Source of the DNA: Larinioides sclopetarius
Taxonomy: Eukaryota
DNA length: 64,000 bases
Reading direction: 5' to 3'
NCBI GenBank assembly: GCA_964023285.1
Contig: CAXIEN010000093.1
Location: 2,247,739 to 2,311,738, forward strand
The position numbers and the translations under genes are program-made. A model generated the notes under the pieces. It did no database searches. It worked only from the letters and a program-made list of their open reading frames with translations, and was not told the origin of the DNA. Each line of letters opens with the position of its first letter. Within the stretch, counting starts at the first letter, position 1. Shown one piece after another: positions 13,419-58,245 of this stretch.

Positions 13419-13939
<521 letters not shown>

Positions 13940-14013: not shown

Positions 14014-14064
<51 letters not shown>
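14014..14064. repeat. (TA)n microsatellite on the right flank of the 13.5 kb palindrome
   Basis: Direct reading. Confidence 0.9.

Positions 14065-14690: not shown

Positions 14691-14696
<6 letters not shown>

Positions 14697-14740
<44 letters not shown>
14697..14740. repeat. (TA)n microsatellite
   Basis: Direct reading. Confidence 0.9.
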
Positions 14741-17699: not shown

Positions 17700-19205
17700 A
17701 CAAAATAACTAGTATGATGGAGCCATCACAAAACTTTCTTCTATATGATTACTTAATTGAGATGCATCAAGAGTCTATAAATATAATGCTTATTTTTATC
17801 CAAAACATATTTTTAGACTTTATGAAACTTTTTCTTATATTTTAAGCACCGGTGAAGCTATGCTTTATGATAGAAACAGATAAATGCTTACAACAAAAAT
17901 TTTTAAAAAGCATACCGGAGCTTCATGTTGAGATACATGTATGAAAACTGAAAAGAAATAACTTCATATTGTATACATTTTGTGTATTAAATTATATGCA
18001 ATTTCAAAAAATAGAAACCGAGAAATACTCATCACAAAAATTGCAAAATTTCAAAAAAAAAAATTACGAAAAAAACGGAATAACAGCGTCATCTGTTGAT
18101 CGATATGCACCAAACTCTAATCGACTTCAATTTATGATAGTGTTAAACTAAATGCAAGATTTCATGAAGTTATGACCATTAGTATTTTCTCCAGAGCGAT
18201 CACAATATGTCGAAAAAAATTGGGAATAAAGTGGAATAACAGCGCCACCTATACAGAGATCTACACCAAAGTCTAATCAGTGTTAATTTCTGTTATGATG
18301 CTACGAAATATAAAATTTTATAAAATTCTGTCAATAAAAGTTTTTGTTCTAGAGCGGATACAAAATTTCTCAAAATTCGTTTTAAAAAAACGGAATAGCG
18401 GCGCCATTTGTTGAGAAATTTGCACCAAAATCTAATCAGCACCAATTTATGCTAAGATGTATTTAAATATAAACTTTCATGAAATTATGTCCATTGCTTT
18501 TTCCTCAAGTTCGGCCACAAATTTGTGTCGCATTCAGACACACAGACAGACATTTTCTAAAAAATAGTCAATTCGTGTTCAGGACCTCCCAAAACGTGTA
18601 AATCCATAAAAAAAAACGGAAGTCGAAAATTTTCGCAATTCTAATACTTTCTTCTTATATCTATATATATATATAGAAGAAAGTAAAAATATAACTAGTA
18701 TGATGTGGCCATCTCAAATAATTATATGTTTGAAACCGAGATATACTAAAAACAAATATTGAAAAATTATGAAAAAATTAAAATATCAGCGCCACCTGTC
18801 AAGCGATTTGCACAAAACTTTTATCAACATTAATTTAAGTCAAGACATAAACTAAGTATTAAATTTCATGAAATTTTTCTGATTAGTTTTTGATGTAGAG
18901 TGGATACAAAAAACCGGGAAAAAACAGAATAGTAGCGCCACCTGTTGAGAGATCTACTCCCAAATCTGCTCAGCACCAATTTATGTTAAAATACAACTAA
19001 ATATGAAATTTCATAAAATTCTGTTTAGTAGTTTTTTCGCTAGCACGCCCATAAAATTTAGGTTACACACAGCACACAGACAGACAGACATTTTCTAAAA
19101 ATACTAAAATAGTGTTCAGGACTCCCCAAAACCTGTAAATCCATCAAAAAACGGAGGTCGAAAATTTTCGCGATTCCAATACTTTCTTCTTATAGAAGAA
19201 AGTAA
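17700..19205 (+). mobile_element. Cluster of family-F1 non-autonomous elements (SINE/MITE-like, about 510-650 bp): a partial 5' end at about 17700-17770, a degenerate copy at about 18030-18680 and an intact copy at about 18688-19205
   Basis: Each copy starts 'actagtatgatgtggccatc(a/t)caaa...' and contains two internal sub-repeats carrying 'acggaatagcagcgccacctgttgagcgatctac...aatctaatcagcaccaatttatg...atatgaaatttcat'. Each ends with (GACA)n and the palindromic tail '...cggaggtcgaaaattttcgcgattccaatactttcttcttatagaagaaagtaa'. The 18.6 kb copy has an (AT)n insertion inside the terminal palindrome. Confidence 0.75.
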
Positions 19206-22200: not shown

Positions 22201-25200
22201 AAAGTCAACGATTCACTTGCATTCATCTGTTTATATACAAAGTTGCATACTTCTATCTACAACTTGCAGAGATGTAAGAAGGCAAATTTGTTGACTTAGA
22301 TGATGATGAAGAAGTTGTTTCAGATTTATTGACTTAAATCATTTTTCAGTACCTTTTAATGCTGTTTGATCTAGTCTTTTCATATACATTTTAGAGGCAT
22401 TATACAAGTTTCAATAAATTTAAAGGATAGAATCAGGAAACAACAATGTGTTTGTTAACTTTTGTTAAATCTAAAAAAATTGTGAAAATAAGTTAATTGA
22501 AACGTTTACAAAAATATTTCAGCTTGTCAACCTTGATTATTCAAGGAATTAAATACCAGCAAACACTGCTAATTTGCACAAAATCAAGCAGTGCTATAAA
22601 AATATCACTAGTATTCATTTGAAATAGAGTTTTTCAAAAATAGATTTACCTTTAAATAGTCCAAACTATTACTTGGGATTTTCTGATTGTATTTCAGAAA
22701 ATTGCTGTCAATTTTTTCAATGTGAGTGACTTTTAACAACAGAAATTGAATATGTTGAAACCAGCCAAGTTCCCGTTGTGGCAACATGAAAATTAATTCG
22801 AAACCTAAAATAAGCTTATGATTTTTTTAAAGTCAAGAATGCCATGGCTAACATGGGTAACAATAAGAGGGAGGGTAAGAAAACTAGTTGTGTGGCCTAG
22901 AGTCAAACAGGAACATAAGAAAATCCATTTCTAGCTAAGTTCAAAGACAGGAAAGATAGCTATTCGCCTTCATCCATTATGTCACTTTAGTTATAGTCAG
23001 TCAGTCAAGAACCATTGGATGTGTAGCACCTCCTATGTGTGTCTTGCTTTCTCATTTATTTTCTGCCTTTTCTAATTTTTATCTCTTTTCGTTGATCATC
23101 GAACTCCCAGAGTGGAAAAGGAATAAGTATAAAAACGAAAATAAAAATATTTAAATAATTTTTCGTAAATTCTGCAACCGTAAAGGAGGAGTCGTCAGTG
23201 TCTTTCGATAAAACTTCAAAATATTCAAAACACACAATGAGAGAAAATAATTTATATATAATATTCTTATCCGATTTCAGACTATTTTCCTATTTATGTT
23301 AGATTTTATTTTTTCCAATTGCCCTTCGACTCTCTATCAAATCGACAGCTGCAACCATTTGTCAACGAATCTCAGTAACAGCAATAATTTTTTCTCCTCT
23401 TTAGCAGTTCTTTTATCCATAATAATTGGACGATGTACTGCTACATAATTTGAAATTGCCTGTTTCCCTATGTTAAATAAATTTGCATTACTGCAATAAA
23501 CATCTCCATATAAATTTGTTTAAATTAAAAAAAATAACAAGCATGACTCTGCAAGTTTTTGCAGACAGAATCGTGAAGCTTTGTTTATACATAGATGAAG
23601 GTAAGAAAAGCATTTTACTTATTGACATTTTTGCTCAGTAGGGAACATGTAAAGATTTAATTTTCTTAACTTTTTATTTTCAGCTTCCAGAGAATCTAAA
23701 ATATTTTCATATAAATTCCTGCCTTATTTGATGAAACTTTGTAATCGAAGGAATGTGTCTAAGTGCAATTTTAAGGAAATATATGCTTATTCTACCTTTT
23801 CTGGGATACCTTATATAAAAAAAAACATCGCGACATGTGGTATTTTTCAATAATATAAACCAATATGAGAACATATGTAGTAAACCTATATAAATGCTTT
23901 GCTTAAATAAATAGTTTGGGCTAATTTGCGATACACAATATTTTGACATAACAATGACGATAAGACAATAGAGCTGATGATTCTTGGGATTAATCAATTA
24001 TTTATTCGATAAATAATCGAAACCTCGAACACACAGGAATGGCACTATAGAACAAGTCATTCTTGACAGTTGTCCCCATTGAATTGGCCTTTTGATACTA
24101 TATAAGACATCCTGCTCCTTTTTTTTTGGCAGTCTGACAAAGGATAATTTCTATATTTATATTTTTTTTTCTAAATATTTATTTTTAAATCCACCTGAAC
24201 TGTTTTTCTTTGGATTTATTTAATCATATTGTTTGGATATTTTTACAGAAGAAAGTAATTCTGGGTTGATAATCATTAGTAAATTGCTATTTTTATTGCT
24301 ATTGTTCCCATTAAGCAATAGTTTTTTGAGTAGAGATACGCTGTAAACCATATATAGGTGAAAATGATCGAATATTAATTATAGTTTTAGGTTTCCACTC
24401 CAGTATTAACTTTTAACTATATGCATGGCGCATTTAGTCAATGATGGCTGCTGTGCCAAAAAAACCAAACAAGTACTGGCTGGGAAGATAAGCAAGAATT
24501 TCATTGTCTTATCGACATAAATTCGCTGAAATACAGCTTTCGTTTAATATATGCTACTCATTTCATGATGCCAAAGTGCAAAAACTCAACAACTGGTACT
24601 GTTAAGTATATTTTTGTATTATAAGTACTCTTAAGTATATTTTTGTAAATGTCTAAGAAGGAATAATTTTTTACATCCCCTGTTTTGTTCTATATTAACG
24701 ATCTATCGCTGTTTTCTATCTTCTATGATTTTATTTCTTTAATGTTCTTTAATTAACATTCGCAGTACGATGTTTTTACCCCAGTTTGATATTCGGAAAA
24801 AATATAACAACATATAGTTTTCTTATTCTGTTCCTTTTCAAAATATATATTTTTGTTCCTAAATTTTAGCTAGGATGTTTTTAAGAATGCTTTCTTAAAT
24901 TGGAATAAATATTTTTACCTAGATTATCAATGTTTCAGAGAATATCTTTAAAAACTAAATCTTATTTTATTTTCTTAAGGTGTTTATATTTTTGAAAAAA
25001 TGCTTTCATTTCTACAGTCTTATCAAAGATTATTTCAATGCATAATATATTTATACTAACAACTAGTATTCTCCTCTGAATAGACAAATAAAACATCTCC
25101 AGTTATTTCAACAGAAATACAGTTTATAGGAAACTTTGCTACACTAATAAAAGAATCGTGCTCTGCTTTTTTCAATCTCAAAATGTGAAAAACTATGTGA

Positions 25201-27620
25201 TTTAACCCTTTATCTACTGTATTAACTTACGAGCGGCATTTCATTTAAATTTTGTTTTTAATGATAAGTTTTGATGTAGAATAATCCTGAGAAGGAAAAA
25301 AACAATTTTTTAATTAATTAAAATTATTTAATTAGTTTAATTAATAATTATATAAGAAAAAATAATTTCTGCATCCATCCGCAATTTACAATTGGAGCTC
25401 CATCTTCCATTTTCTTTGAATTCTGTAAGAATAAACGACGAAATTGCAAAGAAACAAACGTAATTAAAATGGTACTTTTAGAAGATAAAGTGTATTTAGA
25501 AAATATGTGTGAAATTTATTTTTATATTTGCACAAGAGAATAAACAGAAATACGATACACTTTATTCATAACTTTCATAGGAATGCGATAAATATAAAAC
25601 ATATTTTAGACGAACATTATATGAAATGGAAAACATATTTTATTGTTGTCTTATTGAATTATAGTTATTTTTCTAAATCATCTGGTTAGTTTTTGGAAAC
25701 TAACGTTTGCCCCTAAAAGTTTTGGTACAAAGAGAAATATATATATAATAAAATATCATAAATATCAAAAAAGGAGATAAGTTGATAATGTGGTTTGCGA
25801 ATGACATGCGCATCGTTTTCAAGAGGGATTCCGCATTATTTTATTATTGGCAAATCTTCGTGAATCGCAGCATTTTTGCGCATCTGTTGTATTTGTATAA
25901 TAATATTTTTTTTTTTGGTTTCTCTTTTCCTATATCGGCTTTATTTGAAAGTTGATTATTTATTATTAGTTTTTATTGCTATTTCTATTTTAGTATTTTT
26001 CCATTTTGTCTTTTTTTTATTTACTTACTTATTTTCGAGTGTTTTTTATTTCCTTTATACTTGAATTTATTTCATTTGCTTTCGTATTGTAGAACCGATT
26101 ATCCCGAACATTCGAGACCATCCCCATTCCAGATTTCTGAATTTTCCTGTTTTCTGGATCAGGAAAAACGCAATTTAACGATTTAAGAAAAATTCTAAAT
26201 TTTGTTAATAAACTATAACAAACTTAAAAATGAGATTAAAAAGCAATAAAACATATACCTAAAGTGAATTTAATTTTAAAAAATAGAGTTTATTGCGCTA
26301 AAAACGCTACTTACATGCTGCTTAGGAATCTCGAACTTCGGTAATAAAAAGTGATAGATTTTAAAATGGGGTGAAAAACGGTTTGAAAAACGCAAATGAA
26401 GTTATAATGATTTTAAAAAAATACATTTCATTGTGAAAAAAACTTTATAAAAACAAGTGAAAAGAAAACGAAAAAGGTTTTATAAAAATTGCACTTATTC
26501 TTACTTTTTAAACATTTAATCTATCTTAATCTGAGAGAAAGCAGGTTTCAGACTTAAGAAAAGAACAACTATTAGATTTTGTCCTCAGCCATTCCTTTTC
26601 TTTAATGAACTCTTTCGCTAACTCTATCATAACTTTCATTAGAAACGAAGGACGCAATTTTTCTTTATTCATCACTCTCATGTCCCTTGTCTGGAATTTT
26701 GCTTTAAATAACCATAATCTGTATCCTCTGTAGTAAAAATCTATTTTAAAAGCATATCTTATTTAATTTCATAAATCTATTTTTCCCCTTTCTATTTAGA
26801 TATTGCGCCCCCCCCCGGGGGAGTATGAATAAATCAGATATCGTTTTCTATTCTTTTTTTCCAGAGATTAATCACTTAAAATTAAATAGCTTAACGATAT
26901 CTCTAATTCTAGAGAGTACAGAAAAATATACACCTTTTCAAAAAGTGTCGGAAAAATCGTGGTTTTTAAAAAAAAATTACGGAAAAAAATGCGCTCTGTT
27001 TATATAAAATTAAAAAAATAATTAAAAACGGAAAAGTTCGTCGTTTTGAAAAATGACAGGAAATGTCGCCGATTTTGTTCCGGTTTTCTGGGTTCCGGAT
27101 AAAAGATTCTGTACTGTATATCGATATTCATATAATATAATAGTCAGAAAAGAGTATTTATATAATAATAGTTAGAAAAACAACTGTTTTTCTTTATATA
27201 AATATGCTGATTTCCTTTTTAAAACTACCATTTTTTTGCTTTATTGATTTTGAATACATGCTTTTAACTTTATTCTTATTTTCCTTATTTTATGTATTTT
27301 TTTGAAAATTTTCTGAAAATATATATGGAGAGAATGCACCCCCCCCCCTTGTTCAAAATGTTTGTGTTTTTTCTTTTCCATTGTTAAAAATAAAAAATAT
27401 GAATTAAAAGAAGCCTTTATCAAATTAAACAAATTAATAAAATATATATAAGTATAGATAGTATATTAAAACTGTTAACAGTCAGTAAAAAACACTTTTT
27501 GTTTATCATTTCTTACAATGAATAAAAAGAGAAGAGTAGAAGCAATCTAGGTTTAAAAAATTAATGATTAGTGTCCATTTAAGAAGAAATAGTTTTAAAT
27601 ATATTATTATAATAACTGTG

Positions 27621-27720
<100 letters not shown>

Positions 27721-29276
27721 TTGATGAACGTATTGATTTTCTTATAATTCATAAATTAGTTAATCTAATTATACATTACGCAGTTTTCTTAATTTTTAAG
27801 CACATTTATTCAAATCTACATATTTTAGTATAAAAAGAGCAGAAAAACTTATCACGGTTTAATGTTAATCTTAATTTTCTGTTAAAAATAATTTATCTAT
27901 ATAATTGATAAAAATCTATGATTATTTAGTTAAAATTTCTGTGTGTTTTAAAAATTTCAATTTCTATATTTTATTAAACTAATCAAGTTCGATTTTTAAG
28001 TATCAAAAATTTAAGTCATGGGTTAAAATCTGGAGTAAAGGTAGCTAGCTTGTCCATCTGTTTTCTTTATTTCGTTCTCTTTGATAATCTCTTCATCATT
28101 TATTCACTTATGACCAACTTCATAAGTAAATAAAATATGACTTTTAACCTTCAGATATCCAAATATCAGAGGTTTTTTTGTATAAGATGCCAATAAATAA
28201 ATAATGAAATCTAAAAGAATGATTCACGCTTAATTTTTGCCGTCTCTTGGCATTCTCTCATTCAATAACCAGAAAACTGAATCCCTTGGACTGCCTTGGC
28301 ATCTGTCTTTTGAATAACTGTCGCTGCTGAAGCTCGAGTACTGAGGTTTGGCTCCAAGTGGTCTTCATCAGCCACGGCCCAATCCCTCCCGAAGGAGGTA
28401 CGTACTATCAATAGAGAATGTACCCAAGTCCCTCCATCACTTTACACCCCAGGGAAAGCGACACTTATTTTGTAAAAAACAAAAAGAGTTCGTTTACTGT
28501 GGCATGGAAACATGTTCAGGAAAGCTTTCCCAAGTGGCATAAAAAATAAGAAATTTTGAAACCTAGCAGTTTTACAGATTTTAGTCATTACATTATCTGA
28601 ATAATATGGAGATTTTCTATCTGAATTTAGATCTATTGCAAAGTTTTCGGCACAGAGTTGGTTGGAAATTTTATTTGAAAGCTTTATTCAAATTTTATAC
28701 GATATTTTAAGTCAGAATACTTTAAAGTATCTACGCAAAAAAGAAACAATATCTGTAAAACTGTTACGTTTGTCAAAAGAAGCAAAATAAACTTAAGCTG
28801 CGCATTATTTTTTTTCAAAACAAATGTCATTTAATTTCCAAAAGTCACACATAAATAAGTGTAAGAAAAGTAATTTTATACTAAGTTTTTGATGAAAATC
28901 AAACCAACTTCACAACAACTTTCTTAATAATAAATATCTCCAACTTCAGTACAAAGATTTAATAATTGAATAATTTAATTGGTTAATTATGAAAATATTA
29001 AAAATTAGATAAATAAGAAGCGGAAGTGCGTATGATACAAATATGCCTCACTGCTTGTTAAAGGTTTATAATCCGAATAAGAAAGCAAAGGAATTTTCTT
29101 TTCCTTGTATGATGATTATTGTAAAAATTTAAAGATATTCTTAAACCACAAAAGTTATATTTCAAATAAATTCGAAAGATTTGCTCAATCGAATAAAAAA
29201 GGCGAAACATTTTTATGAAGATAAAAAGCAATTAAAAAATATTATGTGAGCTATTTTATATTTTCATGAGAACAAC

Positions 29277-32469: not shown

Positions 32470-33720
32470 ACAAATTAAGATGAAACTTGGCACACTGGTT
32501 CCTTATAACTCATCTTGAGGTATAGGGTATGTGGATAAGGGTAGGGGTAACAAATTGATTAAATGCCAAATTTGGCGATTTTTGTAAAATTTTGTACACG
32601 TAAATTTAAAGTACTGTAGGTGTAAATAAGCTCAAACCCAGGCCCTAAGGGCAGGTTGGTCCAAAAAACCCCGAATACATGTGACAAAGAGGTCGGTCGA
32701 CATAGTTCGCAATTTTGATGGAATTTGACATACAGAATCCTTATTAGAAGACATGTATGAGTAAATAGGCCTTATCAAAATCCCTCCAGGCTGGGTGGGT
32801 CGACTCCCCACAAAAAAACATATAAAAATAGGTCAGTTAGTATTCTTCACGGTTTTGATGAAAGTCGGTAACAGAATTCTCATTAGCTGACATGCATTAA
32901 TAAAAAGACCTTAACAAAATCCTCCAGGGCAGGGTTGGTCTAATTACTCAATTACAAGTAAAAAGTAGGCTGGTTGGCTACTTTACAATTTTAATGAAAT
33001 TCAGTACACAAAATCTTCATTAGCCGACTTCTGTAAGAAAATAGGCCTTAATCAAATCCTTTAGGGCAGGGTTGGACTACCCTCCCTAATACATGTAAAA
33101 AATAGGCCAATTGACATTCTTTGATTTGAATGAAATTCGGTGCACAGAATCTTTATTAGTCGGCTTGTATGAGAGCAAACAGGCCTTAATAAAATCCCTC
33201 AAGGAAAAATCGGCCTAATTCCTAAATACATGCAACAAAAAGGCCGATTCGTATGTTTCGTGATTCTTATGAAACTTGGTGCATAGAGTCTTCATTAGCC
33301 GACTTATATGAGAAAACAGACCTTAATAAAATCCCTCAATTAAAGGTGCGCCTAATCCCCAAATACATGCAGCAAACAGGCCGGTTTGCAAGTTCCATGA
33401 TTCTGATGAAATTCGGTACACAGAATCCTCATTAGCCGATATTTGTAACTCAATAGGCCTAAACAAAATCCCTTAGGGCAGCGTTGTCTTAATTCCCCAA
33501 ATACATGTAAAAAATAGGAATGCTGACATTCTTCGAGATTTTAATGAAATTTGGTACTCAAAATCTTCATTAGCTCTAACTTGTATAAATAAATAAACCT
33601 TAAAAACCCATCAAGAGAGGTGCCCTAATCCCTCAAATACATGTGACAAATAGACCGGTTGGCATGCGTCGCGATTTTGAAGAAATTCGGTACGCAGATT
33701 CCTCATTATGCACATTTAAA
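32470..33720. repeat. Intronic satellite array, unit about 137 bp, 8-9 diverged units
   Basis: Each unit carries 'aatccct(c)(c/t)agg(c)(a/t)ggg(t)tgg(t/g)c...atacatgt(g/a)a(c)aaa(a)ataggcc(g/a)(g/a)t...(c)ttc...gattttgatgaaat(t)cggta(c)a(c)agaatc(c)t(c)attagc(c)gac'. Unit starts were read at about 32644, 32781, 32909, 33054, 33192, 33329, 33466 and 33600. Confidence 0.8.
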
Positions 33721-36700: not shown

Positions 36701-37665
36701 AAAAATGTAGCTGTTCTCAAATGTGGACGCTGGGCGTTATGGGTTAAATTCATTCATAAAAGTGAAATTTCTGCAAATAAACCCTAGGTGAACAGTTTCT
36801 ACAAACGAATAATTAATATCTAAGTTTGAATTACTTTAAAAAGTAAATAAAAACTGATAGATTATAATATATTTAATTTCAATGTTTAATTATAAAATTA
36901 ATCATACACTGTGCAATATAAAGAATACTGATAAAGTAATAAAAAGCTAACTTTGAAATTTGATTTGTATTAAATTTAACTAATTTAAAAGCTGAGATTG
37001 TTTCATTAAATTTCCTTAGAAAAAACTGCCTGCATATTTCCTTATATAAAACTGTAGCAAAAAAATGATTTTAATAATACAATCATTAAATTATTCAGCA
37101 TTAATTTAAAAGAGGAAAAACTTTAAATAATGCAACATGCACATTCCCCTGTAGTTTAAGAATGACAAATAGGATCCTAAAGAATTAGGGAAAATATCAA
37201 ATTTTTCGCAAGGATTTTCTCGTGTATTTTACTAAATAATTCCAGGAAATCTCTCCATTGGAACGAAATATATTTTCTATCCTTTTCCTAAGTTTCTGAA
37301 ACTACTTGCCATTTCGCCAGACTAAATATTTTGAAAAAATCATTCATTTTTTGTCGAGCTATTTCCCTACGCAATTCGTAATAAGAATGAAAGAGCATTC
37401 GCTTGTTTTTAACACGTTTAAGTGCCCTTCGTGGCCTCAGGGGACCTACATTCAACTTTTAGTTTAGTGGTTCAAGAAAAATGCTCTCCTGTGGACTGAT
37501 ATGAGTGTATTGTTTAAGGAAAATGTAATAATATATTATTTCCAAGCAAAGGCCATTGACTCCAGAAAGAATTTTGTCCGTCTTCAATTTTTGGCGACTA
37601 GTTACTTTAAATAAACAGTATTCAAGATAGTGTAAAATAGCTTAGATTATTGCTGTTATTTCTTC

Positions 37666-38490
37666 TCCAAGAATTTTAACGAAAAATTTGGATTTGAGAT
37701 TCTAATTCAGCTGGATCCAAAAATGATAACAGCACAGATGTTGAAATGAAAGGATGATGAATCATAAATATATATTCGAATTAAAAATTAATTTCAACAT
37801 TCAAGTCAAAAATACATTGTAAAACTTATCGTATCTTTTAGTTTAGATTTTTAGAAATCATAGCGGAAATAGTATTATTATTGAAATCTTAACACCACTC
37901 ATCCATCTTTAGAGTTCGCCGTCGGTATGGCGTGGAAGAAAATTCTCCAAGAATTTTAACGAAAAATTTGGATTTGACATTCTAATTCAGCTGGATCCAA
38001 AAATGATAACAGCACAGATGTTGAAATGAAAGGATGATGAATCATAAATATATATTCGAATTAAAAATTAATTTCAACATTCAAGTCAAAAATACATTGT
38101 AAAACTTATCGTATCTTTTAGTTTAGATTTTTAGAAATCATAGCGGAAATAGTATTATTATTGAAATCTTAACACCACTCATCCATCTTTAGAGTTCGCC
38201 GTCGGTATGGCGTGGAAGAAAATTCTCCAAGAATTTTAACGAAAAATTTGGATTTGACATTCTAATTCAGCTGGATCCAAAAATGATAACAGCACAGATG
38301 TTGAAATGAAAGGATGATGAATCATAAATATATATTCGAATTAAAAATTAATTTCAACATTCAAGTCAAAAATACATTGTAAAACTTATCGTATCTTTTA
38401 GTTTAGATTTTTAGAAATCATAGCTGAAATAGTATTATTATTGAAATCTTAACACCACTCATCCATCTTTAGAGTTCGCCGTCGGTATGG
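37666..38490. repeat. Tandem array of about 270 bp, three near-identical units
   Basis: 'ttctccaagaattttaacgaaaaatttggatttga(g/c)attctaattcagctggatccaaaaatgataacagcacagatgttgaaatgaaagg...gagttcgccgtcggtatggcgtggaag' is repeated at 37666, 37936 and 38222, with more than 97% identity between units. Confidence 0.9.
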
Positions 38491-38494
38491 CGTG

Positions 38495-38645
38495 GAAGTT
38501 TAGAGAAGAGGGTGCCGACTTAGGTGTCGTCCTTGTCATCTGACCACTGTTTAAAATTACGAGTCCGTCCCTAAATAGCCCTCGTGTTTCTTCTAAAGGG
38601 ACGTTAATATAACCTAACCTGACTTTAAGTCCGCATGTCTTCTAT
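38495..38645 (+). mobile_element. SINE-like short interspersed element, about 150 bp (family 3), copy 1, abutting the 270-bp tandem array
   Basis: Shares 'ggaag(t)ttaRagaag...gg(t)g(t/c)cgtc...tcatYtga...aaaattacNagtc...aaatagcc.tc.tgtt.cttctaaa.gggac.ttaatataac.taa' with copies at 40690 and 53075. Confidence 0.55.
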
Positions 38646-48560: not shown

Positions 48561-50419
48561 AGTGATATTATACTTTTAGATACCAGTGTACCTCCTCGTC
48601 TTGTTTATTCATGACGCTTATCTCCTTTTATGTTAGCTTAGCATTACTGATCAAACAAAATGTATAAAAATAGTCGTATAAAGTTGCGTATAAACTGGCG
48701 AGCCAAACGTGAAACGTAATATGATAAAAACACAATTCGCTGCTTGTTCGCGTTTGAGTCGCCAATGTATTTCACAGTTTTCCCACTGTCATTGAAGAAA
48801 AATTTTCAAGAACCTTTTACGAAAAATTCAAGGACTTTTTATGAAAAATTCCTAGACTATAAAATTACATATTATCGACGTCTGTACATAACTGAGTTTT
48901 TAACTTGAAAAACTATAAAATGTATCTAATTTGCAGTTCTGATCATTGGGGAATGCTGAGGGACAGATATTATAGGAGGTCGCTCACAAATTTAAGGACT
49001 TTCAAAGACCTCGTCCTTTTTTCAAGGGCTTTCAAAGACCTAATTTCATCAAAAAACTTTCAAGGACTTTTAAGGATTTTCAATGACGTGGGAACCATGC
49101 TTTCACTTCAACACGCAGTGAATCTTAAAGTAACTGTTTTTTATCATGTTGCATTTTCCGTTTCTTGCCAGTGTATACGCAGCCTTATAGGATTAGAAGA
49201 ATGGCAGGTCGTTGCAAGATAACTTCAAACAATGTTTTCACAAATGCCTTAACTTTCGGTATAATACAGGGTATACGGTTCCGGTAACATCGTTTACAAA
49301 TCAATATAACCGCAGGTACCTGTACTTTTGTGCATAATTGGTACCCAAATCCGGTTTAAAATGAAGTGCAGCTTTTTAAAAAATTCCTCCCAAATTCTTT
49401 GGCTCATATTTTAAGTCAGATATAAATTGAAAAAGTGTTTTTTAGATTGGGAAAGAACAAAAGATAATTTTTCGAGCCTTGCCTTGATTCTAAAATTCAT
49501 ATACATGAAAAAGTTTACAAGTAAAAGAGTAAATTTAATGCTATGTCCTGACTTTATTTGCTCACAGCTCACCTCTATCTCGTAAAAGTTTAATAAAAAA
49601 ATGAAATATCTTTTTACCATCTCCAACAGACCAAAAATGTTCAGCAAATAATGAAAAAACTGTAACGGCAGTTTAATATAACATAGTTTTCTTCATTGAG
49701 AGCAGAGTTTTTAAAAATTTTATAAGGAAGCTCTAGAGAGCACATAAGTACTAGTCTAAAAATAAGGTTAAAAATTGTAATAAAATTCTTAATCAAATCT
49801 TATTCAAATTGTCATTATGATACATTTAACAACAGAATGTGCAGGGACTCAAATCATTCATACTATATATATATCAAATGTAAATTGATGTCATTAAGTT
49901 AGTTAAATGGGAGTTATTTAGAGTTCCTATAATAATAGCGGTACTTTTCTAATTGTTGATTGTGATTAATATGTTTTAATTACATTTTGTTTATGTATTA
50001 CACTTAAATATTCATGGGTATTTTGTTTATTTTGTCGCTTATTTACTCAAAAAACGATCTATCATAATTTTAAGGGAGAATTATTTTACATTAATTATTT
50101 AACAACAATTAGTCATTGATATTTCCAAACAAAATAATCAAAAATAACATTGAAATTCGTAGATGGTTTATATTAATAGAGACTAATTAGTGTTTTCACC
50201 ATAACATAGGTACGTTTGTTTTATGCTTTTTTTATTTTAAAATTATCCCTCTCTGATTAGTCCTCCCCCTCGCTTTTAGGTTTACATACCGATAAAAATA
50301 GTTTCATTTTTTCTGCATTTTCCATCTTCTGGAAAAGAGTATTTTTTTAACCACCTATATATTTCTATCCTTTGGGAGAAAAAAAATTAATGAAATTGCG
50401 TTGCAAAGAACACAAGAAA

Positions 50420-51406
50420 ACTAGTATGATTTATCCATCACAAAACTTTCTTCTATATAATTATATAATTGAAGCCGGGAAATACTAAAAACAAATATTA
50501 AAAAATGTATGAAAGAATTGAAATAGCAGCGCCACCTGTCGAGCGATCTACACAAAAATTTTATCAACAATAATTTAAGTCAAGACAAAACTAAATATAA
50601 AATTTCATGAAATTTCTCCAATAGTTTTTTATGTAGAGTGGATACAAAAAAAACATGAAAAAACGGAATAGCATCGCCACCTGTTGAGCGATCTACGCCA
50701 AAATCTAATCAGCACTAATTTATGTTAAAATACAACTAAATATGAAATTTCATAAAATCCTGTCCAATAGTTTTTGCGCCAGCGCGTCCACAAAATTTCG
50801 GTTACATACACCACACAGACAGACATTTTCTAAAAATAGTGAAATCGTGTTCAGGAGCCCCCAAAACGTGTAGATCCATCAAAAAACGGAGGTCGAAAAT
50901 TTTCGCGATTCCAATACTTTCTTCTTATAGAAGAAAGTAACAAATATTGAAAAATTTATGAATAAATTGAAAAACCAGCGCCACCTATCAAGCGATCTAC
51001 ACAAAAATTTTATCAACAATAATTTAAGTCAAGACAAAACTAAATGTAAAATTTCATAAAATTTCTCTCATTAGTTTTTGATCTAGAGTGGGTACGAAAA
51101 AACGTGATAAAAACGGAATAGCAGCGCCACCTGTTGAGCGATCTACTCCAAAATCTAATCAGCACCAATTTATGTTAAAATACAACTAAATATCAAATTT
51201 CATAAAATTCGGTCAAGTAGTTTTTGCGCTAGCGCGCCCACAAAATTTCGGTTACATACACCACACAGACAGACAGACAGACGGACAGACATTTTCTAAA
51301 AATAGTGAAATCGTGTTCAGGAGCCCCCAAAACGTGTAGATCCATCAAAAAACGGAGGACGAAAATGTTTGCGATTCCAATACTTTCTTCTTATAGAAGA
51401 AAGTAA
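50420..51406 (+). mobile_element. Two head-to-tail family-F1 elements (50420..50940 full length; 50941..51406 lacking the first roughly 60 bp)
   Basis: Same head ('actagtatgat.tatccatcacaaaactttcttctatata'), internal duplicated 'acggaatagcagcgccacctgttgagcgatctac' modules, (GACA)n and 'tactttcttcttatagaagaaagtaa' tail as the 17.7-19.2 kb cluster. Confidence 0.8.
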
Positions 51407-52063
51407 AAAAACGTTTTAACTCATTTTATTGTGTGTGCCGAAAAATATTTCTTGTAAATTTTTCTTAGTAATTTTCTTTATCTACATGTAATGGGATCAA
51501 TTCATGCTCATATAATAGATGAAAATTAAAAAGCGCCAGTTCAAATTTTGGATCCACTGCGCATTGTGCGATTGCTGCTCGTAGCGTTCAGAATAATTCT
51601 TTTGCTGATAATTCTGAACTATTCATTTTTACTTACAAATTTTATTTTATAAGTTAATTCTAGTTTTTTCCTTTAAAAGTAAATTCTTAAAGATTTGCGT
51701 TTTTAACAACACAGCTTATGTTTTTAGCAACGCAATATTATTAAGTTGTAACTGAAAAACTTTTCGTAAGACAGATGTCTTTTGTTTTATAGTAAAAAAA
51801 AGCAAAGAATAATGCATTATTTTTGCTCAAAAAATATGCGGAAAATGTTAACATACACAGAGTCAGGGCATAGTGTAAAATGTGATATGATAGACCCCTG
51901 CACATTGTGTCTTACAATGCAACATTTATAGTAACATGTTTAGATAATATTCGCAATTACATTGTAATATGACCGTAGCGTCACATGAATTTACACCATT
52001 CTATATTTAAATAGAATTTCCAGGGTCTGAGAACTTTGAAGATTTCATTGCCCGCTTCTATTT

Positions 52064-53050
52064 TTACTTTCTCGTATAGAGAAAGTATTGTAATCGTCAA
52101 AAAATCCGAACTCGAGATTTTGACAAATCTCCACGTTTTAGACCTCCCTGAGTCCAAAAAAACACAATTTTAGAATTATGTCTGTCTGTGTGTGTGTCTG
52201 TCTGTCTGTCTGTGAACACGATAATTCAAATACTATTATAGCTACGAAACTGAAATTTGGTAAGTGGTCTTTTTTCATGATTTGTAAGATTCTATCAAAT
52301 TTTGGGCAACATTCGCCGACAGGAAGTATGTCTGTCTGTCTGTGTGTCCGCGTTCATGTGAACTCAATAACTCAAAAACTTCAAGAGCTATATAGATAAG
52401 ATTTGATACACAGTTTTCTCATCATAAATTCCTGTCCGTATAACATTTTGGGCCTAATCCGTCTAATGGTTGACCGTCAGGCGGTCTGTATAATCCACTA
52501 TTTTCAAAATTTATAACTCTTAAACCCTTTGGTCTACATCTATATAATTTAGTATGACGTATGCTAATAAAAATTGTAAACGTATGCAAAAATTTCGCCC
52601 CATTCGATTAAGTAGAAGGGGTATAATTCATTAACCAAATTTATAATACGCAACTGCATACGCGCGTTTCCGTAGCAGCTGCACCAAGGTCACGGGCTCG
52701 CGGCACGAAACAACGCAACGTCGCAGAAGGCTGTTTACTCGGTTCTCCTTGCGCGTCAAAAAGTGGCGCTGCTTTTTATCCCTTTGTTCGTCAGCATTCT
52801 CGGGTGTTTTGTTCTTGCTTTTTGGTAGTTAATTTAATTATGACCATGGATTGATTTTTAGATAGTGAAATTATTATTATTATTAAAGTGAAAATGACGT
52901 TTCGCGCATAGAGCAGATTCAAAATTTTTGTCAGGTTTATAGCTTTCACAGTCGGTGGATTTTTTTTTATCAACGATGGAGGAGAGGAAACAGAGAATAA
53001 TTCAGGGGAACTATACGAGAAAGTTTAGGGAAGGCCACTCCCACTGGTTG
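52064..53050 (+). mobile_element. Family-F2 element / left arm of a large inverted repeat. It consists of a tail module ('tactttctcgtatagagaaagta...(GACA)n') at its 5' end, an AT-rich body with a second (GACA)n, a GC-rich segment (about 52650-52800) and an ATG-containing end segment
   Basis: Inverted homology to 56697..57584. The tail module is homologous to the F1 3' tail. ORF 52178..52399 ('SVCVCVCLSVC') is a microsatellite artefact. Confidence 0.75.
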
Positions 53051-53074: not shown

Positions 53075-53225
53075 CAAATGTTGGAATTTGGAGAGAGAGA
53101 TACGAGTTCAGGTGTCGTCCTCGTCATCTGTTGGCGGTTCATTATTACGAGGTCCATCTCAAAATACTCCTCGTGTTGCTGAGAAGTGTAACGTTAGTAT
53201 AAACTTAAGTATTTTATACCTGAGA
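53075..53225 (+). mobile_element. SINE-like element of about 150 bp, family 3, copy 3, in the core of the large inverted repeat
   Basis: 'caggtgtcgtcctcgtcatctgttggcggttcattattacgaggtccatctcaaaatactcctcgtgttgctgagaagtgtaacgttagtataaac' is homologous to the 38495 and 40690 copies. Confidence 0.5.
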
Positions 53226-53559
53226 ACATTTGAATTCCTTGAAGGATTTGAAGATCCCATGCACATACTCATAAAGTGAGTGGAAATGTCCAGTTTAGTT
53301 CATATAATCGTCATACATGTTACATGTATAATTGCTTAAAACGATTTAAAATTGGCAGATCAGGACCGCTTGCTATCACATTTTGAAGTGACAGAACAGG
53401 TTACATATTTTTATAAGTTTTTTTTTTGCTATAGGGGAAAAAATTATTTTTAAATTATTACATTTTTTAAAGTATAAGTCATCAACTTCTAACGATATTT
53501 TATTTTTTGGTTAGATGCAAAAGAGGGCTTTTAAAGAAGTGGTGGGTGGAAGGCTACAT

Positions 53560-54290
53560 TTTTACTTTCTTCTATATGTATAAAAGAAGAAAGTATTGAA
53601 TCGCGAAAATTTTCGACTTCCTCGATTTTTAATGGATTTACACGTTTTGGGAGGTCATGAACACGATTTGACTATTTTTAGAAATGTCTGTCTGTCTGTG
53701 ACACAAATTTTGTAGCCATGATACTGAACAGAATTTCATGAAATTTTATATTTAGTTGCGTAGTTATATTAATTAGCATAAATTGATGCTGATTAGATTT
53801 TGGAATGGATCGTTTAACAGATGGCGCAACTATTCCGTTTGTTTCAAGATTTTTTAGTAATTTTGTATCTGTTCTAGATAAAAAAATTAATTTATAGAAT
53901 TTCATAACATTTAAGGTTTCATAGCAACATCACAGAAATTACTACTGATTAGATTTTTGTGCAGATTGGATTTTTTGTAGGGCGCTGTTATTCCGCTTTA
54001 TCTCCTCCGCGATTCTCGCGAAATATTGCGGCCGCTCTAGAGGAAAAACTAATGGGCCCAATTTCATGAAATTTTACTTTAGTTTTACCCTATCATAAAC
54101 TGATGCTAATTAGAATTTGGTGCAAATCACTCGGTTTTCCTGGGGTTCTTTTTGGATTTTTTTTCATGAATTCCGCGAAATTTCGCAATTTGTGTGATTA
54201 GAATATCTCGGTTTCTATGATTTAAAATTCCATACAATCTCTACAATATGAAGTTACATTGATTCAATTGTTATGCATGTTTCTCAATAG
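53560..54290 (-). mobile_element. Family-F1 element in reverse orientation, with the tail at 53560-53700
   Basis: 'tactttcttctatatgtataaaagaagaaagtattgaatcgcgaaaattttcgacttcctcg...gtctgtctgtctgtg' is the reverse complement of the F1 tail, followed by the reverse-complemented 'tgattagattttgg...gcgcaactattccgtt' modules. Confidence 0.65.
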
Positions 54291-54659
54291 GGGCTCTGCT
54301 AGGCCTTTTTATAATTTTTGTTATAAGCATTTCTCTGTTTTTCTTAAAAAGCATAGCTTCAACATTTCTTAAAATAGAAGAAAAATTTTGATTCAGTTTA
54401 TTAATATGCTTTAGATAAAATTAAGCGTTATATCTATAGACTCTGATGGATCTCAATTATATACAATATAGATGTGTGATGGCCACATCATACTACTTTC
54501 ACTTTCCGAAGAGACTTTTCTTATACAGTTACTAAGACTCTGTAGAGACAGGTGTTTTTTCGAAAATCTTAAGTCGCGATAGGTAATGTTGTTAATAAGA
54601 AAGGAAATTATTGCTTAAATATGGATTCAAGTAGAAATTTTTTTTCAAAATATGCTCCC

Positions 54660-55196
54660 AACAAAAAATGATGTGGCCATCACAAAACTTTCTTCTATAT
54701 AATTATATGATTGAAACCGAGATATACTAAAAACAAATATTGAAAAATTTATGAAAAAAATGAAATAGCAGCGTCACCTGTCAAGCGATCTGCACAAAAG
54801 TTTTATGAATATTAATTTAATATTAATTTAAGTCAAGACAAAACCAAATATAAAATTTCATAAAATTTCTCCCATTAGTTTTTGATGTAGAGTGGATACA
54901 AAAAATCGTGAAAAAACGGAATAGCAGCGCCACCTGCTGAGAGATCTACACCAAAATCTAACCAGCACCAATTTATGTTAAAATGCAACTAAATATGAAA
55001 TTTCATAAAATTCTATCCAGTAGTTTTTGCGCTAGCGCGCCCACAAGATTTGCGTAGACAGACATTTTCTAAAAATAGTGAAATCGTGTTCAGGACCCCC
55101 CCACCCCCCAAAAAAAACGTGTAAATCAATCAAAAAACGGAGGTTGAAAATTTTCGTGATTCCAATACTTTCTTCTTATAGAAGAAAGTAAAAACG
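54660..55196 (+). mobile_element. Family-F1 element in forward orientation. A short inverted copy of the F1 head also lies at about 54468-54495
   Basis: 'gatgtggccatcacaaaactttcttctatataattatatgattgaaaccgagatatactaaaaacaaatattg...ccaatactttcttcttatagaagaaagtaa'. Confidence 0.75.
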
Positions 55197-56696
55197 TAGT
55201 TCGACTATTTCAAAAGAGAGATGTTTAAAATTAAAAGAAATCCTCTGGGTCGAAGATTTATTGAAAAACTATTAAAATGCTCAGTACTAACTTTAAACAA
55301 TAATGCAAATACTTATTTGAATTTTGAAAACATCAAATAATAAAACGATCATCGTTTTTTCTCCATCGTCTTCTTGTCTTTACATATCGTCTAACGCAGA
55401 ACATGCTGCATAATTCTTAGAAAAAAAAGCAATTATCAAAAGAAAAATAGAGAAATCTTAGAAAAATAGATGAAGCTTGATTCTTTTCAAATAACTACAT
55501 GGATAAAAGATCAATTTAGTATCATCAAAAAGGAGGAAGAAATCATAAAACATTGTTTAAAGTATCTATAAAGTTTATCTATGGAATTTATATATGATTG
55601 TTGATGGTTTTTAATATAACGGCAAAAGTAAATTAAAGAGAGTGGAGGAAAATGTTAAGATCAGCTCCATATATACTAACTGGAACAAATTTTACCTTAA
55701 ATCTTTAATTATGAAAGAACATTTCTTTACTCACAATGCCATAAATCAAAAGAACTGCATCAAGACAAAGCAAGCAATCCCAATCCACAATTAATTTTCT
55801 GAAAATAATAGAATATGAAATGGGACATACTAAGATTGCATGTACCCTTCATTGATATTCCAGCTCAATCTGCTGTTGCATCAATCACAGATTTCTACGC
55901 TTTTGAACTTTTAAAAAGCACCTTATACAAATGTTGACATAACAACCCTTTGTGGACTTTGGAAAGCTTTTCAGCGACAAAATACCCTTCCCAATACAAG
56001 AACAAGTATTATTATCATAGAAATGACGATGTAAAATTATAATAATAAGATTGATTCAACTAAACATTTAAAACAAAAAAATTGTTCTGCAAATACCAAA
56101 AAAAAAAATCAAAAATGTGCTAACAGCCTCTGTACAAATAATTTGAAGTAACCTTACGTTGTTTAATATTTTTTTAAAAAAAACAGAATAAGACATTAAA
56201 ATAATTGCAATCCGCTTGCCGTCCCATCCACGGGGTAAGTGTCACTAGCAACTGATGTTATCATTTGCTCTACTGTGACGGCACATCATTTCTTATCCTG
56301 CAATTCCCACAAAAGAATATAATGTGTAGCTCTTAGAATCGCATAAGCCGCTCGTTATGGGGACTGTTTCACGTCGGACGTTTTTTTTATCGCGGCGGCC
56401 GGTCTTGCAACATGTCTGGGATGCTTCAGCAAGGACTGGATTATTTTATTGATTCTTCTCATGCAAGCAGAGCTTTAGATTTTGAAAGTGGGGCTTCCTG
56501 ATTGGCAAACATGGCGTGAATGCACGAAATGATTCCATAATAAATAATATTTTAAAAATTTATAATACTTCTCAATAAACACAGAAGGTGTTTTTTTCTA
56601 AAAAGAATATTTAATATTCTTTCTCCTTCTTTCACTGTCTTTCTTTCTAAAATAAAGGAATGTAATTCAACGCGCATTTTATTTAGCAACCAGTGG

Positions 56697-57584
56697 AAGT
56701 GGCCTTCCCTAAACTTTCTCGTATAGTTCCCCTGAATTATTCCTCGTTTCCTATCCTCCATCGTTGATAAGAAAAATAAAAAATCCACCGACTGTGAAAA
56801 CTATATACCTGACAAGAATTTTGAATCTGCTTTATGCGCGAAAAGTCATTTTCACGTAATTAAAATAATACAACCGCTAGCAGAATTCCCCAAAAAAGAA
56901 AAACGGAACCAAAGCGGAAGTAGAAACAAACTAGGAATTCCTAATTGCAAACCTTTTTTGCTTGCTTACAAAACAACGTTTTCCGCATGCATGCGTATAA
57001 TAAATTTGGTTAGTGAATTATACCCCTTCTATTTAATCGAATGGGGCGAAATTTTTACACACGTTTACAATTTTCATTAGCATAAGTCATACTAAATTTT
57101 ATAGATGTAGACCAAAGGGTTTAAGAGTTATAAATTTTGCAAATATGGGATTATACAGACCGCCTGACGGTCAACCCTGTGACGGATTTGGCCCAAAATT
57201 TTATACGGACAGGCATTTATGATGAGAAAACTGTGTATCAAATTTTATCTATCTAGCTATTGAAGTTTTTGAGTTATTGAGTTCACATGAACGCGGACAG
57301 ACAGACAGACATACTTCCCGTACGCGGATGTTGCCCAAAATTTGATCATTTCTTACAAATCATGTAAAAAGACCACATACCAAATTCCAGCTTTGTAGCT
57401 ATAATAGTTTTTGAGTTATCGTGTTCACAGACAGACAGACAGACACACAGACAGACAGACAGACATAATTCCAAAATTGTGTTTTTCGGACTCAGGGAGG
57501 TCTAAAACGTGGAGATTCGTCAAAATCTCGAGTTCGAATTTTTTGACGATTACTATACTTTCTCTATACGAGAAAGTAAAAAGC
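56697..57584 (-). mobile_element. Family-F2 element / right arm of the large inverted repeat, the reverse complement of 52064..53050 except for a substituted roughly 120-bp segment at 56870-56990
   Basis: 56697-56780 is the reverse complement of 52965-53050. 56990-57430 is the reverse complement of 52200-52640. The tail 'cagacagacagacaga...gattactatactttctctatacgagaaagtaaaaag' is at 57428-57584. Confidence 0.75.

Positions 57585-58208: not shown

Positions 58209-58245
<37 letters not shown>

Follow-up and report, generated by a model that had tools for sequence, protein, structure and literature searches.

Two families of probable DINE-1-like, non-autonomous Helentron derivatives near agrin in the spider Larinioides sclopetarius

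The window analysed here, a stretch of 64 kb from Larinioides sclopetarius, is spider DNA, as shown by an agrin exon that is 100% identical to the protein of this species. It contains nine copies of two element families, six of F1 and three of F2, which together account for ~11% of its length. Seven copies are clustered in the 8.4 kb downstream of the first agrin exon (50.4–58.8 kb), where they fill about two thirds of the sequence; the other two are found 31 kb away (17.7–19.2 kb). All F1 and F2 copies reported in the initial annotation exist in the window; the interval 17700–19205, which had been taken for a single copy, comprises two, F1a and F1b, arranged head-to-tail. The copies and their parts, named as candidate HINEs in anticipation of the classification proposed below, are listed by window position, with strands referring to the usual HINE orientation.

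17707–18689, minus strand: F1a, complete long-form candidate HINE, 983 bp, three central repeat units
18685–18689, minus strand: F1a 5' terminal T-run, TTTTT
18672–18684, minus strand: F1a 5' subterminal inverted repeat (subTIR), ACTTTCTTCTATA
18648–18657, minus strand: F1a inverted repeat AGAAGAAAGT, which pairs with the 5' subTIR
18553–18647, minus strand: F1a conserved core, roughly 100 bp, between the hairpin and the microsatellite
18536–18552, minus strand: F1a GTCY-type microsatellite, reading (GACA)n on the plus strand
18058–18530, minus strand: F1a central tandem repeats, three units of ~146–156 bp, each with AGCGCCACCTGTTGAG-like motifs
17733–17745, minus strand: F1a 3' subTIR TATAGAAGAAAGT, exact reverse complement of the F1a 5' subTIR
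17707–17729, minus strand: F1a 3' stem-loop (GTGATGG-CT-CCATCAT region), then the terminal ACTAGTT
18693–19205, minus strand: F1b, short-form candidate HINE with the 3' subTIR deleted and the stem-loop and ACTAGTT retained
19180–19203, minus strand: F1b 5' hairpin, formed by the subTIR (19191–19203) and the inverted repeat (19180–19189)
19075–19091, minus strand: F1b GTCY microsatellite, adjoined by the F1b core (19092–19179)
50419–50940, minus strand: F1c, complete short-form candidate HINE; 5' subTIR 50926–50938, 3' subTIR 50445–50457
50941–51411, minus strand: F1d, copy without the 3' block; 5' subTIR 51392–51404
53559–54498, plus strand: F1e, long-form candidate HINE; 5' subTIR 53564–53576, 3' subTIR decayed
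54668–55194, minus strand: F1f, short-form candidate HINE; 5' subTIR 55177–55189, 3' subTIR 54687–54699
52061–53050, plus strand: F2a, complete candidate HINE; 5' subTIR 52066–52078 (ACTTTCTCGTATA), 3' subTIR 53012–53024, microsatellite 52179–52213, stem-loop GGGA-AGGCCAC-TCCC, end CTGGTTG
56687–57582, minus strand: F2b, complete candidate HINE; 5' subTIR 57565–57577, 3' subTIR 56713–56725, microsatellite 57427–57465, stem-loop GGAAG-GCCA-CTTCC
57583–58798, minus strand: F2c, copy without the 3' block; 5' subTIR 58781–58793

In F1a, the hairpin loop between the subTIR and the inverted repeat is enlarged by (TA)n. A gap of 3 nt separates the 3' end of F1b from the 5' T-run of F1a, and the 5' end of F1b possibly reaches 19209 (TTTGTT). 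The 3' terminus of F1f consists of a T-run in place of ACTAGTT.

The crowding of seven copies into 8.4 kb and the presence of three head-to-tail pairs might suggest satellite-like DNA that was multiplied locally by segmental or tandem duplication and is not mobile. However, the copies are present in both orientations and display sharp, common boundaries embedded in unrelated flanks, two of them reside 31 kb from the cluster, and relatives sharing this architecture exist in a second spider family (see below), so that we consider local duplication barely credible. No F1 or F2 copy contains an ORF of at least 130 aa.

Read in the HINE orientation, the elements consist of a T-run, a 13-bp 5' subTIR, an adjacent inverted repeat, a core and a (GTCT)n/GTCY microsatellite, followed by central tandem repeats; on the 3' side, a second subTIR precedes a short stem-loop, and the element closes with CT(A/G)GTT. 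The 5' ends of both families read TTTTTACTTTC, that is, a T-run followed by ACTTTC. As proposed in the initial annotation, the module common to F1 and F2 extends beyond (GACA)n: the non-microsatellite part of the F2 module matches F1 with 75% identity over 81 nt (blastn, E 7e-10), and in the nine-copy alignment the two families are 60–68% identical over ~113 non-microsatellite positions, compared with 88–97% at the same positions inside each family. The (GTCT)n microsatellite is located ~135 bp inside the 5' end in all nine copies. The module, originally described as a tail, actually corresponds to the 5' block A of a DINE-1-like HINE seen on the opposite strand. The bodies of the two families had been considered unrelated, which holds for their middles but not throughout, because the other end is homologous as well, over ~45 bp encompassing the 3' subTIR, the stem-loop and CT(A/G)GTT.

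In the 5' hairpin, the subTIR pairs with AGAAGAAAGT in F1 and with GAGAAAGT in F2; the palindrome cited in the initial annotation is the hairpin of F1b. Folded as single-stranded DNA, the hairpin reaches −8.5 kcal/mol in F1 (z = −5.7) and −7.1 kcal/mol in F2 (z = −4.5), with none of 200 shuffled sequences folding as well in either case. The suggestion that this palindrome is bound by a transposase or a reverse transcriptase survives in part: it is a plausible protein-recognition hairpin, and nothing points to reverse transcriptase. [quoted passage not shown] Nevertheless, a tRNA-, 5S- or 7SL-like head is absent, the whole window yielded neither tRNA genes (ARAGORN) nor Rfam matches, the microsatellite is internal rather than terminal, target-site duplications (TSDs) are lacking and the two ends covary as inverted repeats. 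Furthermore, the truncated copies lack the block distal to the hairpin, a pattern different from the graded 5' truncation typical of retroposition. A SINE-like origin is therefore extremely improbable.

The inverted head of F1 at 54468–54495, viewed initially as a hint of terminal inverted repeats, is the 3' end of F1e, a copy lying in the opposite orientation. Genuine inverted repeats of 13 bp, overlooked at that stage, are present in subterminal positions. The subTIR pairs, ACTTTCTTCTATA/TATAGAAGAAAGT in F1 and ACTTTCTCGTATA/TATACGAGAAAGT in F2, are exact 13-nt reverse complements in F1a, F1c, F1f, F2a and F2b. A third family of like architecture, with subTIRs ACTTCCTTTTACG/CGTAAAAGGAAGT, was identified in Uloborus diversus, a member of a different spider family. 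Across these three lineages, which constitute the entire covariation sample, two-sided changes affect 5 of the 13 subTIR pairs and 2 of the 5 stem-loop pairs; 100% of the subTIR cells are paired, and for subTIRs and stem-loops combined the paired fraction is 98%, as opposed to 40–55% when the pairing register is slid. The 3' stem-loop, with a stem of 5–7 bp and a loop carrying a conserved GCCA, follows 3–4 nt past the subTIR. Its stems covary (GATG/CATC vs GAAG/CTTC), although such short structures are singly not significant (z = −1.9 and −1.0).

Short, non-coding, multicopy elements with inverted repeats could also be cut-and-paste MITEs derived from a DDE transposon, the repeats being transposase-binding sites, and DINE-1 itself was originally filed as a MITE. 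In F1 and F2, however, the repeats are subterminal and asymmetrically placed, 2–7 nt inside one end and ~26 nt inside the opposite one; apart from them, the two ends are unrelated in sequence and structure, and the six independent insertion units discussed below lack TSDs, which makes a MITE origin highly improbable. The SINE-like, reverse-transcriptase and classical MITE readings were all rejected.

The search for TSDs, which the initial annotation had recommended, returned none of 2–12 nt around any of the six insertion units. A T-run of 2–7 nt opens all six units, preceded by G, G, A, G, A and C, respectively; on the 3' side, where the ends read ...GTT, five units terminate in TT, TTG or a T-run. 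When the agrin locus was compared with those of five other spiders, the exon and proximal promoter could be aligned but the introns, which do not align between spider genera, provided no empty site. Judging from the element boundaries, insertion would take place exactly between two T residues. These features bear on the possibility that F1 and F2 are non-autonomous canonical Helitrons (HLE1), which have TC as their 5' start, terminate in CTRR downstream of a 3' hairpin and insert between A and T. Indeed, a short hairpin is located 7–8 nt upstream of CTAG in F1 and CTGG in F2, which fits CTRR provided that the terminal TT is assigned to the target, and TSDs are absent. By contrast, the 5' ends are TTTTTACTTTC rather than TC, no constant A precedes the T-run, the Uloborus relative terminates in CTCG followed by Ts rather than in CTRR, covarying 13-bp subTIRs are a hallmark of HLE2, and there is homology, in the F2 block after the microsatellite, to DINE-1, whose partners are Helentrons. 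An affiliation with HLE1 thus appears very unlikely.

A close parallel is offered by the DINE-1/INE-1 elements of Drosophila (Yang and Barbash, 2008), subsequently reclassified as HINEs of Helentrons (Thomas et al., 2014). Similar to DINE-1, F1 and F2 carry, in the same order, a 13-bp 5' subTIR, an inverted repeat, a core and a GTCY microsatellite and, further on, central tandem repeats, a 3' subTIR and, a few nucleotides later, a stem-loop; the boundaries are T-rich, no ORF is present and the 3' ends are alike (CTTGTT in Drosophila, CTAGTT or CTGGTT in F1/F2). In addition, a profile built from the 51-bp block downstream of the microsatellite in Drosophila DINE-1, excluding the microsatellite itself, matched the window only at the corresponding F2 positions, with its seven best matches located directly after F2 (GTCT)n on the right strand (E from 3.8e-4 to 0.11). 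A profile of the 90-bp core preceding the microsatellite in Drosophila produced nothing below E 0.4 in the window. The spider elements differ from DINE-1 in the host, in the sequence of the subTIR, in the near-perfect 9–11-bp hairpin formed by the inverted repeat and the subTIR, and in the 3' stem, which is shorter (5–7 bp vs 7–11 bp) and nearer to the end.

The first chelicerate HINEs, HINE-Mo, were described in the mite Metaseiulus occidentalis (Thomas et al., 2014). They share with F1/F2 a chelicerate host, T-rich insertion sites, a 3' palindrome, subTIRs of 12–15 bp located 2–4 nt from the 5' end and, in some copies, microsatellites or tandem repeats. However, the mite subTIRs are palindromic, those listed do not match F1/F2, and the inverted repeat and core, both present in the spider elements, are absent. 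A structural resemblance extends to Cg_HINE of the Pacific oyster and pearl/DTC84 of bivalves, in which the left flank likewise comprises a subTIR, a complementary inverted repeat and a 4-nt GTCY-type microsatellite, the central repeats are satellite-like (~140–170 bp), the right flank of 60 bp contains a subTIR and a palindrome, the flanks are common to families that differ in their central repeats, and TT is preferred without TSD. These elements belong to a different phylum, and the spider families did not resemble the oyster repeats in sequence; the strings that matched in the Cg_HINE supplement proved to be unrelated central repeats. Going by their description, the MINE-2 elements of Lepidoptera, '(GTCY)n-hitchhiking MITEs' (Coates et al., 2011) that are counted among DINE-1-like elements, also resemble F1/F2 in being non-autonomous and containing an internal GTCY microsatellite.

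Taken together, these observations indicate that F1 and F2 are very probably two subfamilies of DINE-1-like HINEs, non-autonomous derivatives of the Helentron (HLE2) rolling-circle transposons. The initial view of modular, non-autonomous mobile elements that fall into two families with a shared terminal recognition module is upheld. The kind of element is well known, since the architecture fits the published DINE-1/HINE definition feature by feature, and recognition of F1/F2 is mainly an annotation matter that opens no new biological question. The families themselves appear to be undescribed, as surmised previously: they were not found in the searchable literature, where the four F1/F2 subTIR strings retrieved unrelated papers only. 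Standard Helitron finders seek TC...CTRR ends and, therefore, would miss F1 and F2. The model of their 5' and 3' blocks is ready for masking in spider genome projects. A generic structural scan for a T-run, a 12-mer, an inverted repeat and a distal reverse complement recovered F1/F2, the remaining hits being noise from AT-rich DNA. The two families extend the DINE-1-type elements, with their inverted repeat, GTCY microsatellite and following block, to chelicerates beyond the mite HINEs.

F1 and F2, which encode nothing, would be moved in trans by the Rep-helicase(-endonuclease) of a Helentron. The 5' end, with its T-run, 13-bp subTIR, adjacent inverted repeat and the hairpin formed in single-stranded DNA, would provide the start signal, and the 3' subTIR, short stem-loop and CT(A/G)GTT would be read by the enzyme as the stop signal. 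One strand would then be peeled away and inserted between Ts at a T-rich target site, without creating a TSD. Under this scenario, the GTCY microsatellite and the central tandem repeats would represent cargo subject to expansion, contraction and exchange between lineages while the ends act as recognition signals, which would account for two families with common terminal modules and divergent middles. The interior is indeed variable: F1 copies carry 2–3 central repeat units of ~146–156 bp, and F2 contains duplications of ~142 bp and 430 bp, the latter being an internal tandem duplication of F2c at 57826–58675.

Recognition of F1/F2 as HINEs also offers a handle for locating the autonomous Helentron, and a high content of RC/Helitron repeats has been reported for araneid genome assemblies. 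A profile built from the Helentron motifs printed by Thomas et al. (2014), with OCR errors corrected by hand, matched Rep and helicase fragments of Trichonephila clavipes, the loci of which hold a 7-kb Helentron. Its two 7.0-kb copies are 98% identical, encode DUF6570, Rep and helicase domains with a weak endonuclease match, and display textbook ends with a T-run, a palindromic subTIR and a 3' stem-loop. This was the only spider Helentron recovered in the search for an autonomous partner with the same terminal module, another suggestion of the initial annotation; its subTIR, GAAGTGAAAAC, differs and profiles of the F1/F2 ends did not match it, so the partner with F1/F2 termini was not found. 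A scan of metagenome contigs for the 5' hairpin and the start of the core gave one match, located in a myosin intron and not followed by the core, which we take as chance, and the same scan of viral contigs gave none.

Three further readings of these elements can be entertained, which, considered jointly, are rather unlikely. First, the GTCY microsatellite and the ~50-bp block following it may be an ancient cis-element of DINE-1-type Helentrons, which, in that case, would either have been kept from flies to spiders by the requirements of transposition or have spread horizontally. Second, each central repeat unit of F1 carries AGCGCCACCTGTTGAG, and F1 could have seeded arrays of insulator-like sites, an idea prompted by the CTCF-like core AGGTGGCGC in the complement of this motif; the CTCF-like motif is no better conserved than the other blocks of the unit and, consequently, the CTCF connection remains speculation. 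Third, in both families a copy without the 3' block runs directly into the 5' end of the next copy, and the junction coincides exactly with an internal TTTTTAG site resembling the 5' terminus TTTTTAC; the internal site reads TTTGTT(TTTAG) where F1d meets the 5' end of F1c, and TTTTTAG where F2c meets the 5' T-run of F2b. Such fusions may be traces of a by-product that arises regularly from the Helentron mechanism, for instance, through termination or strand transfer at T-runs; in that case, they could explain how tandem arrays grow from elements of this type.

Reading of the sequence, together with blastn searches of representative copies against the window, yielded two families of non-coding repeats with nine copies in all, six of F1 and three of F2, whose combined span of ~7 kb amounts to 11% of the window:

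17707-18689, F1a, long form of F1, 983 bp
18693-19205, F1b, short form of F1, 513 bp
50419-50940, F1c
50941-51411, F1d, whole 3' block missing
53559-54498, F1e, orientation opposite to the other F1 copies
54668-55194, F1f
52061-53050, F2a, orientation opposite to the other F2 copies
56687-57582, F2b
57583-58798, F2c, whole 3' block missing

The interval 17700-19205, initially annotated as F1, does contain this family, but as two head-to-tail copies. Seven of the nine copies lie within 8.4 kb (50.4-58.8 kb) downstream of the first coding exon (NtA) of an agrin-like gene (60772-61215, minus strand), and this cluster apparently occupies an agrin intron. The exon product has 100% identity to a protein of Larinioides sclopetarius, a match that establishes the source species, and other spiders provide the next best matches. 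The agrin exon is the sole ORF of at least 130 aa in the window; none occurs inside the F1 and F2 copies, which are thus not coding elements.

The two families had been described as sharing a terminal module. Stripped of its microsatellite, the F2 module matches F1 with 75% identity over 81 nt (blastn, E 7e-10), and in a MAFFT alignment of the nine modules the identity over ~113 non-microsatellite positions is 60-68% between F1 and F2 and 88-97% within each family. A profile of the module matches nine places in the window, precisely the nine copies. The similarity therefore extends beyond the microsatellite, and the original observation is confirmed. The accompanying statement that the bodies are otherwise unrelated does not hold, since the opposite ends are homologous over ~45 bp (alignment of the F1 and F2 3' ends).

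Orientation proved decisive. The initial annotation had used the other strand, on which the 5' block appears as a tail; in the reverse orientation, every complete copy displays the same order of parts:

1, 5' run of 2-7 T
2, 13-nt motif, the 5' subterminal inverted repeat (subTIR), ACTTTCTTCTATA in F1 and ACTTTCTCGTATA in F2
3, adjacent inverted repeat that pairs with the 13-nt motif, AGAAGAAAGT or GAGAAAGT
4, conserved core of ~100 bp
5, (GTCT)n microsatellite, ~135 bp inside the element
6, central tandem repeats, in F1 2-3 units of ~146-156 bp each; in F2 units of ~142 bp that each include a short GTCT run of their own, and a 430-bp duplication in F2c
7, 3' subTIR, exact reverse complement of the 13-nt motif, TATAGAAGAAAGT or TATACGAGAAAGT
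8, short stem-loop 3-4 nt past the 3' subTIR, TGTGATG-GCCA-CATCATA in F1 and GGAAG-GCCA-CTTCC in F2
9, element end, ACTAGTT in F1 and ACTGGTT(G) in F2

The terminal palindrome noted previously corresponds to parts 2 and 3 and indeed folds as a hairpin, with energies as single-stranded DNA of -8.5 kcal/mol (z = -5.7) in F1 and -7.1 kcal/mol (z = -4.5) in F2, which none of 200 shuffles equalled. Because the 13-nt motif recurs as its exact reverse complement near the other end, the two copies represent subTIRs, and both positions at which the motif differs between F1 and F2 are changed in both copies. The earlier reasoning for terminal inverted repeats was wrong and overlooked these class-defining 13-bp subTIRs. 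A GC-rich internal segment of ~210 bp is present in F2a (52650-52860) and F2c (57595-57800), F2b being unrelated there (56880-57000); it may represent captured sequence or may distinguish subfamilies.

This parts list agrees item for item with the published definition of DINE-1 of fruit flies, and F1 and F2 are very probably DINE-1-like HINEs, that is, non-autonomous Helentrons, and are most aptly treated as two subfamilies of a single family. Thomas et al. (2014; PMC4067079) showed that DINE-1 and comparable elements belong to the HINEs, which have T strings at either boundary; empty sites place their insertion between T residues, with no duplication of the target. Neither the inverted repeat nor the core, both present in F1 and F2, occurs in the mite HINEs of that study (PMC4067079), and the spider elements are nearer than these to the DINE-1 type. 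In the oyster Cg_HINE, likewise, the left flank comprises subTIR, inverted repeat and GTCY-type microsatellite, the right flank comprises subTIR and palindrome, and satellite-like repeats occupy the centre; some of its groups have common flanks but different central repeats (PMC7492417). This is the very modular pattern noticed initially, and the description of F1 and F2 as modular non-autonomous elements is thus borne out.

The SINE-like and reverse-transcriptase readings proposed alongside it are not: neither tRNA-like sequence (ARAGORN) nor Rfam families were found in the window, and the simple repeat lies ~135 bp inside the element. A cut-and-paste MITE should leave a target-site duplication, and direct repeats of 2-12 nt are absent at all six independent insertion units; moreover, the inverted repeats are subterminal and asymmetric, with 2-7 nt outside one of them and ~26 nt outside the other, which does not fit the classical MITE layout. 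The CTAG or CTGG after the 3' hairpin recalls the CTRR of canonical Helitrons; F1 and F2 do not show the TC start after a host A expected of that class, and this assignment was rejected as well.

Similarity to DINE-1 goes beyond layout. From the consensus alignment in the supplement of Yang and Barbash, we built separate profiles of the regions before and after the microsatellite, with the microsatellite excluded, and searched ~200 kb of spider DNA. The core preceding the microsatellite had no significant match there, whereas the seven best matches of the 51-bp post-microsatellite block fall right after F2 (GTCT)n runs, all on the correct strand (E 3.8e-4 to 0.11). The 3' ends resemble each other too: most fly consensus sequences have CTTGTT, and F1 and F2 have CTAGTT or CTGGTT. 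Together, these matches and ends point to common descent with DINE-1 in at least part of its 5' block (block A).

The Uloborus diversus agrin locus (L004) gave one match to the F1/F2 5'-block profile (E 1.4e-5), at ~26965-27760, where a third HINE family has the same architecture: subTIRs ACTTCCTTTTACG and CGTAAAAGGAAGT (exact 13-nt complement), a stem-loop TGATG-CACA-CATCA and then a T-run after the 3' subTIR, and a degenerate GTMY microsatellite followed by an F2-like block. Across F1, F2 and the Uloborus element, 98% of alignment cells are paired, compared with 40-55% when the register is slid. In these three lineages only, changes are two-sided at 5 of 13 subTIR and 2 of 5 stem-loop positions, and every change is compensated. 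Such covariation is what would be expected of signals read by one protein. By analogy with Helitron-like elements, a Helentron Rep-helicase acting in trans would recognize, at the 5' end, the T-run and the hairpin of subTIR and inverted repeat and, at the 3' end, the subTIR and stem-loop; after nicking, it would unwind a single strand, starting at the 5' end of the element and finishing at the 3' end, and insert this strand between T residues. The microsatellite and the central repeats would be cargo, altered by slippage, duplication and exchange. In Oedothorax gibbosus (L003, ~23835-23915), a short 5'-block-like piece comprises the hairpin ACGTTTATAACGT, then GAAAGGTATTATAATCGT and a GTCY microsatellite. 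In the window, ~8 diverged tandem units of ~137 bp with ATGAAATTCGGTACACAGAATC (32630-33720) loosely resemble part of the F2/Uloborus post-microsatellite block, with no adjoining HINE ends seen.

No autonomous element is present in the window. A Helentron motif profile, a rough query made from the alignments printed in Thomas et al. with OCR corrected by hand, retrieved Rep and helicase fragments from Trichonephila clavipes, where two loci share a 7.0-kb stretch with 98% identity (L007, 7065-14081; L008, 5520-12603). Its termini, TTTT-GAAGTGAAAACTTC ... GTTTTCACTTC-TATCG-GCAGTC-CCAC-GACTGC-TA-T(n), enclose an autonomous Helentron encoding DUF6570, a reported marker of the Helentron class (HLE2), a Rep domain and a PIF1-type helicase; an APE-like endonuclease matched weakly, below the Pfam cut-off. 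Apart from a single additional A in the internal A-run, the subTIR is identical to the one in Drosophila Helentron family 41. The near-identity of the two copies argues for recent Helentron activity in this orb-weaver relative. Because the F1 and F2 end profiles do not match this element, it was rejected as their partner.

All three adjacent copy pairs are head-to-tail. A gap of 3 nt separates the F1b end from the F1a T-run, and F1d and F2c run without a gap into the 5' end of the copy that follows (50941/50940 and 57583/57582). They break at internal T-runs, ...CAATATTTGTT|TTTAG in F1 and ...GGATTGA|TTTTTAG in F2, which in both families mimic (TTTGTTTTTAG or TTTTTAG) the 5' terminus TTTTTAC. 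Since the remainder of the broken copies was not found beyond the downstream copy, simple nested insertion is rejected. The two cases fit several causes: a copy may have terminated at a pseudo-terminus and then entered the T-run of a resident copy, microhomology may have mediated a deletion, or the composites may themselves transpose as units.

The suggestion of an undescribed family stands in part: no relevant paper within the searched literature contains any of the four subTIR strings, and the published table of DINE-1-like elements has no spider entry, but the kind is well described, and an abundance of RC/Helitron repeats in araneid assemblies has been reported before. What is new are the F1 and F2 families.

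The post-microsatellite block, the truncation junctions and a CTCF-like motif are small leads rather than findings. The last of these, AGCGCCACCTGTTGAG, occurs in every F1 central repeat unit (12 matches with at most 3 mismatches, against 0.05 expected; 18085-18415, 18788-18949, 50528-51138 and 54770-54941), with conservation not higher than that of other blocks of the unit. Its complement includes AGGTGGCGC, which we take to resemble the CTCF core motif, and GGCGCCACCTAGCGG is found in the D. ananassae DINE-1 consensus as well. Elsewhere, three repeats of a 280-bp unit share 99% identity (37663-38498), and the sequence just after this array (38500-38620, aggtgtcgtcct.gtcatctg...) recurs beside the F2a 3' end (53080-53200) and so represents another dispersed repeat family. 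Long perfect (TA)n runs of up to 60 units (13422-13541, 14014-14064, 14696-14740 and 27624-27719) fit an AT-rich genome of ~30% GC.
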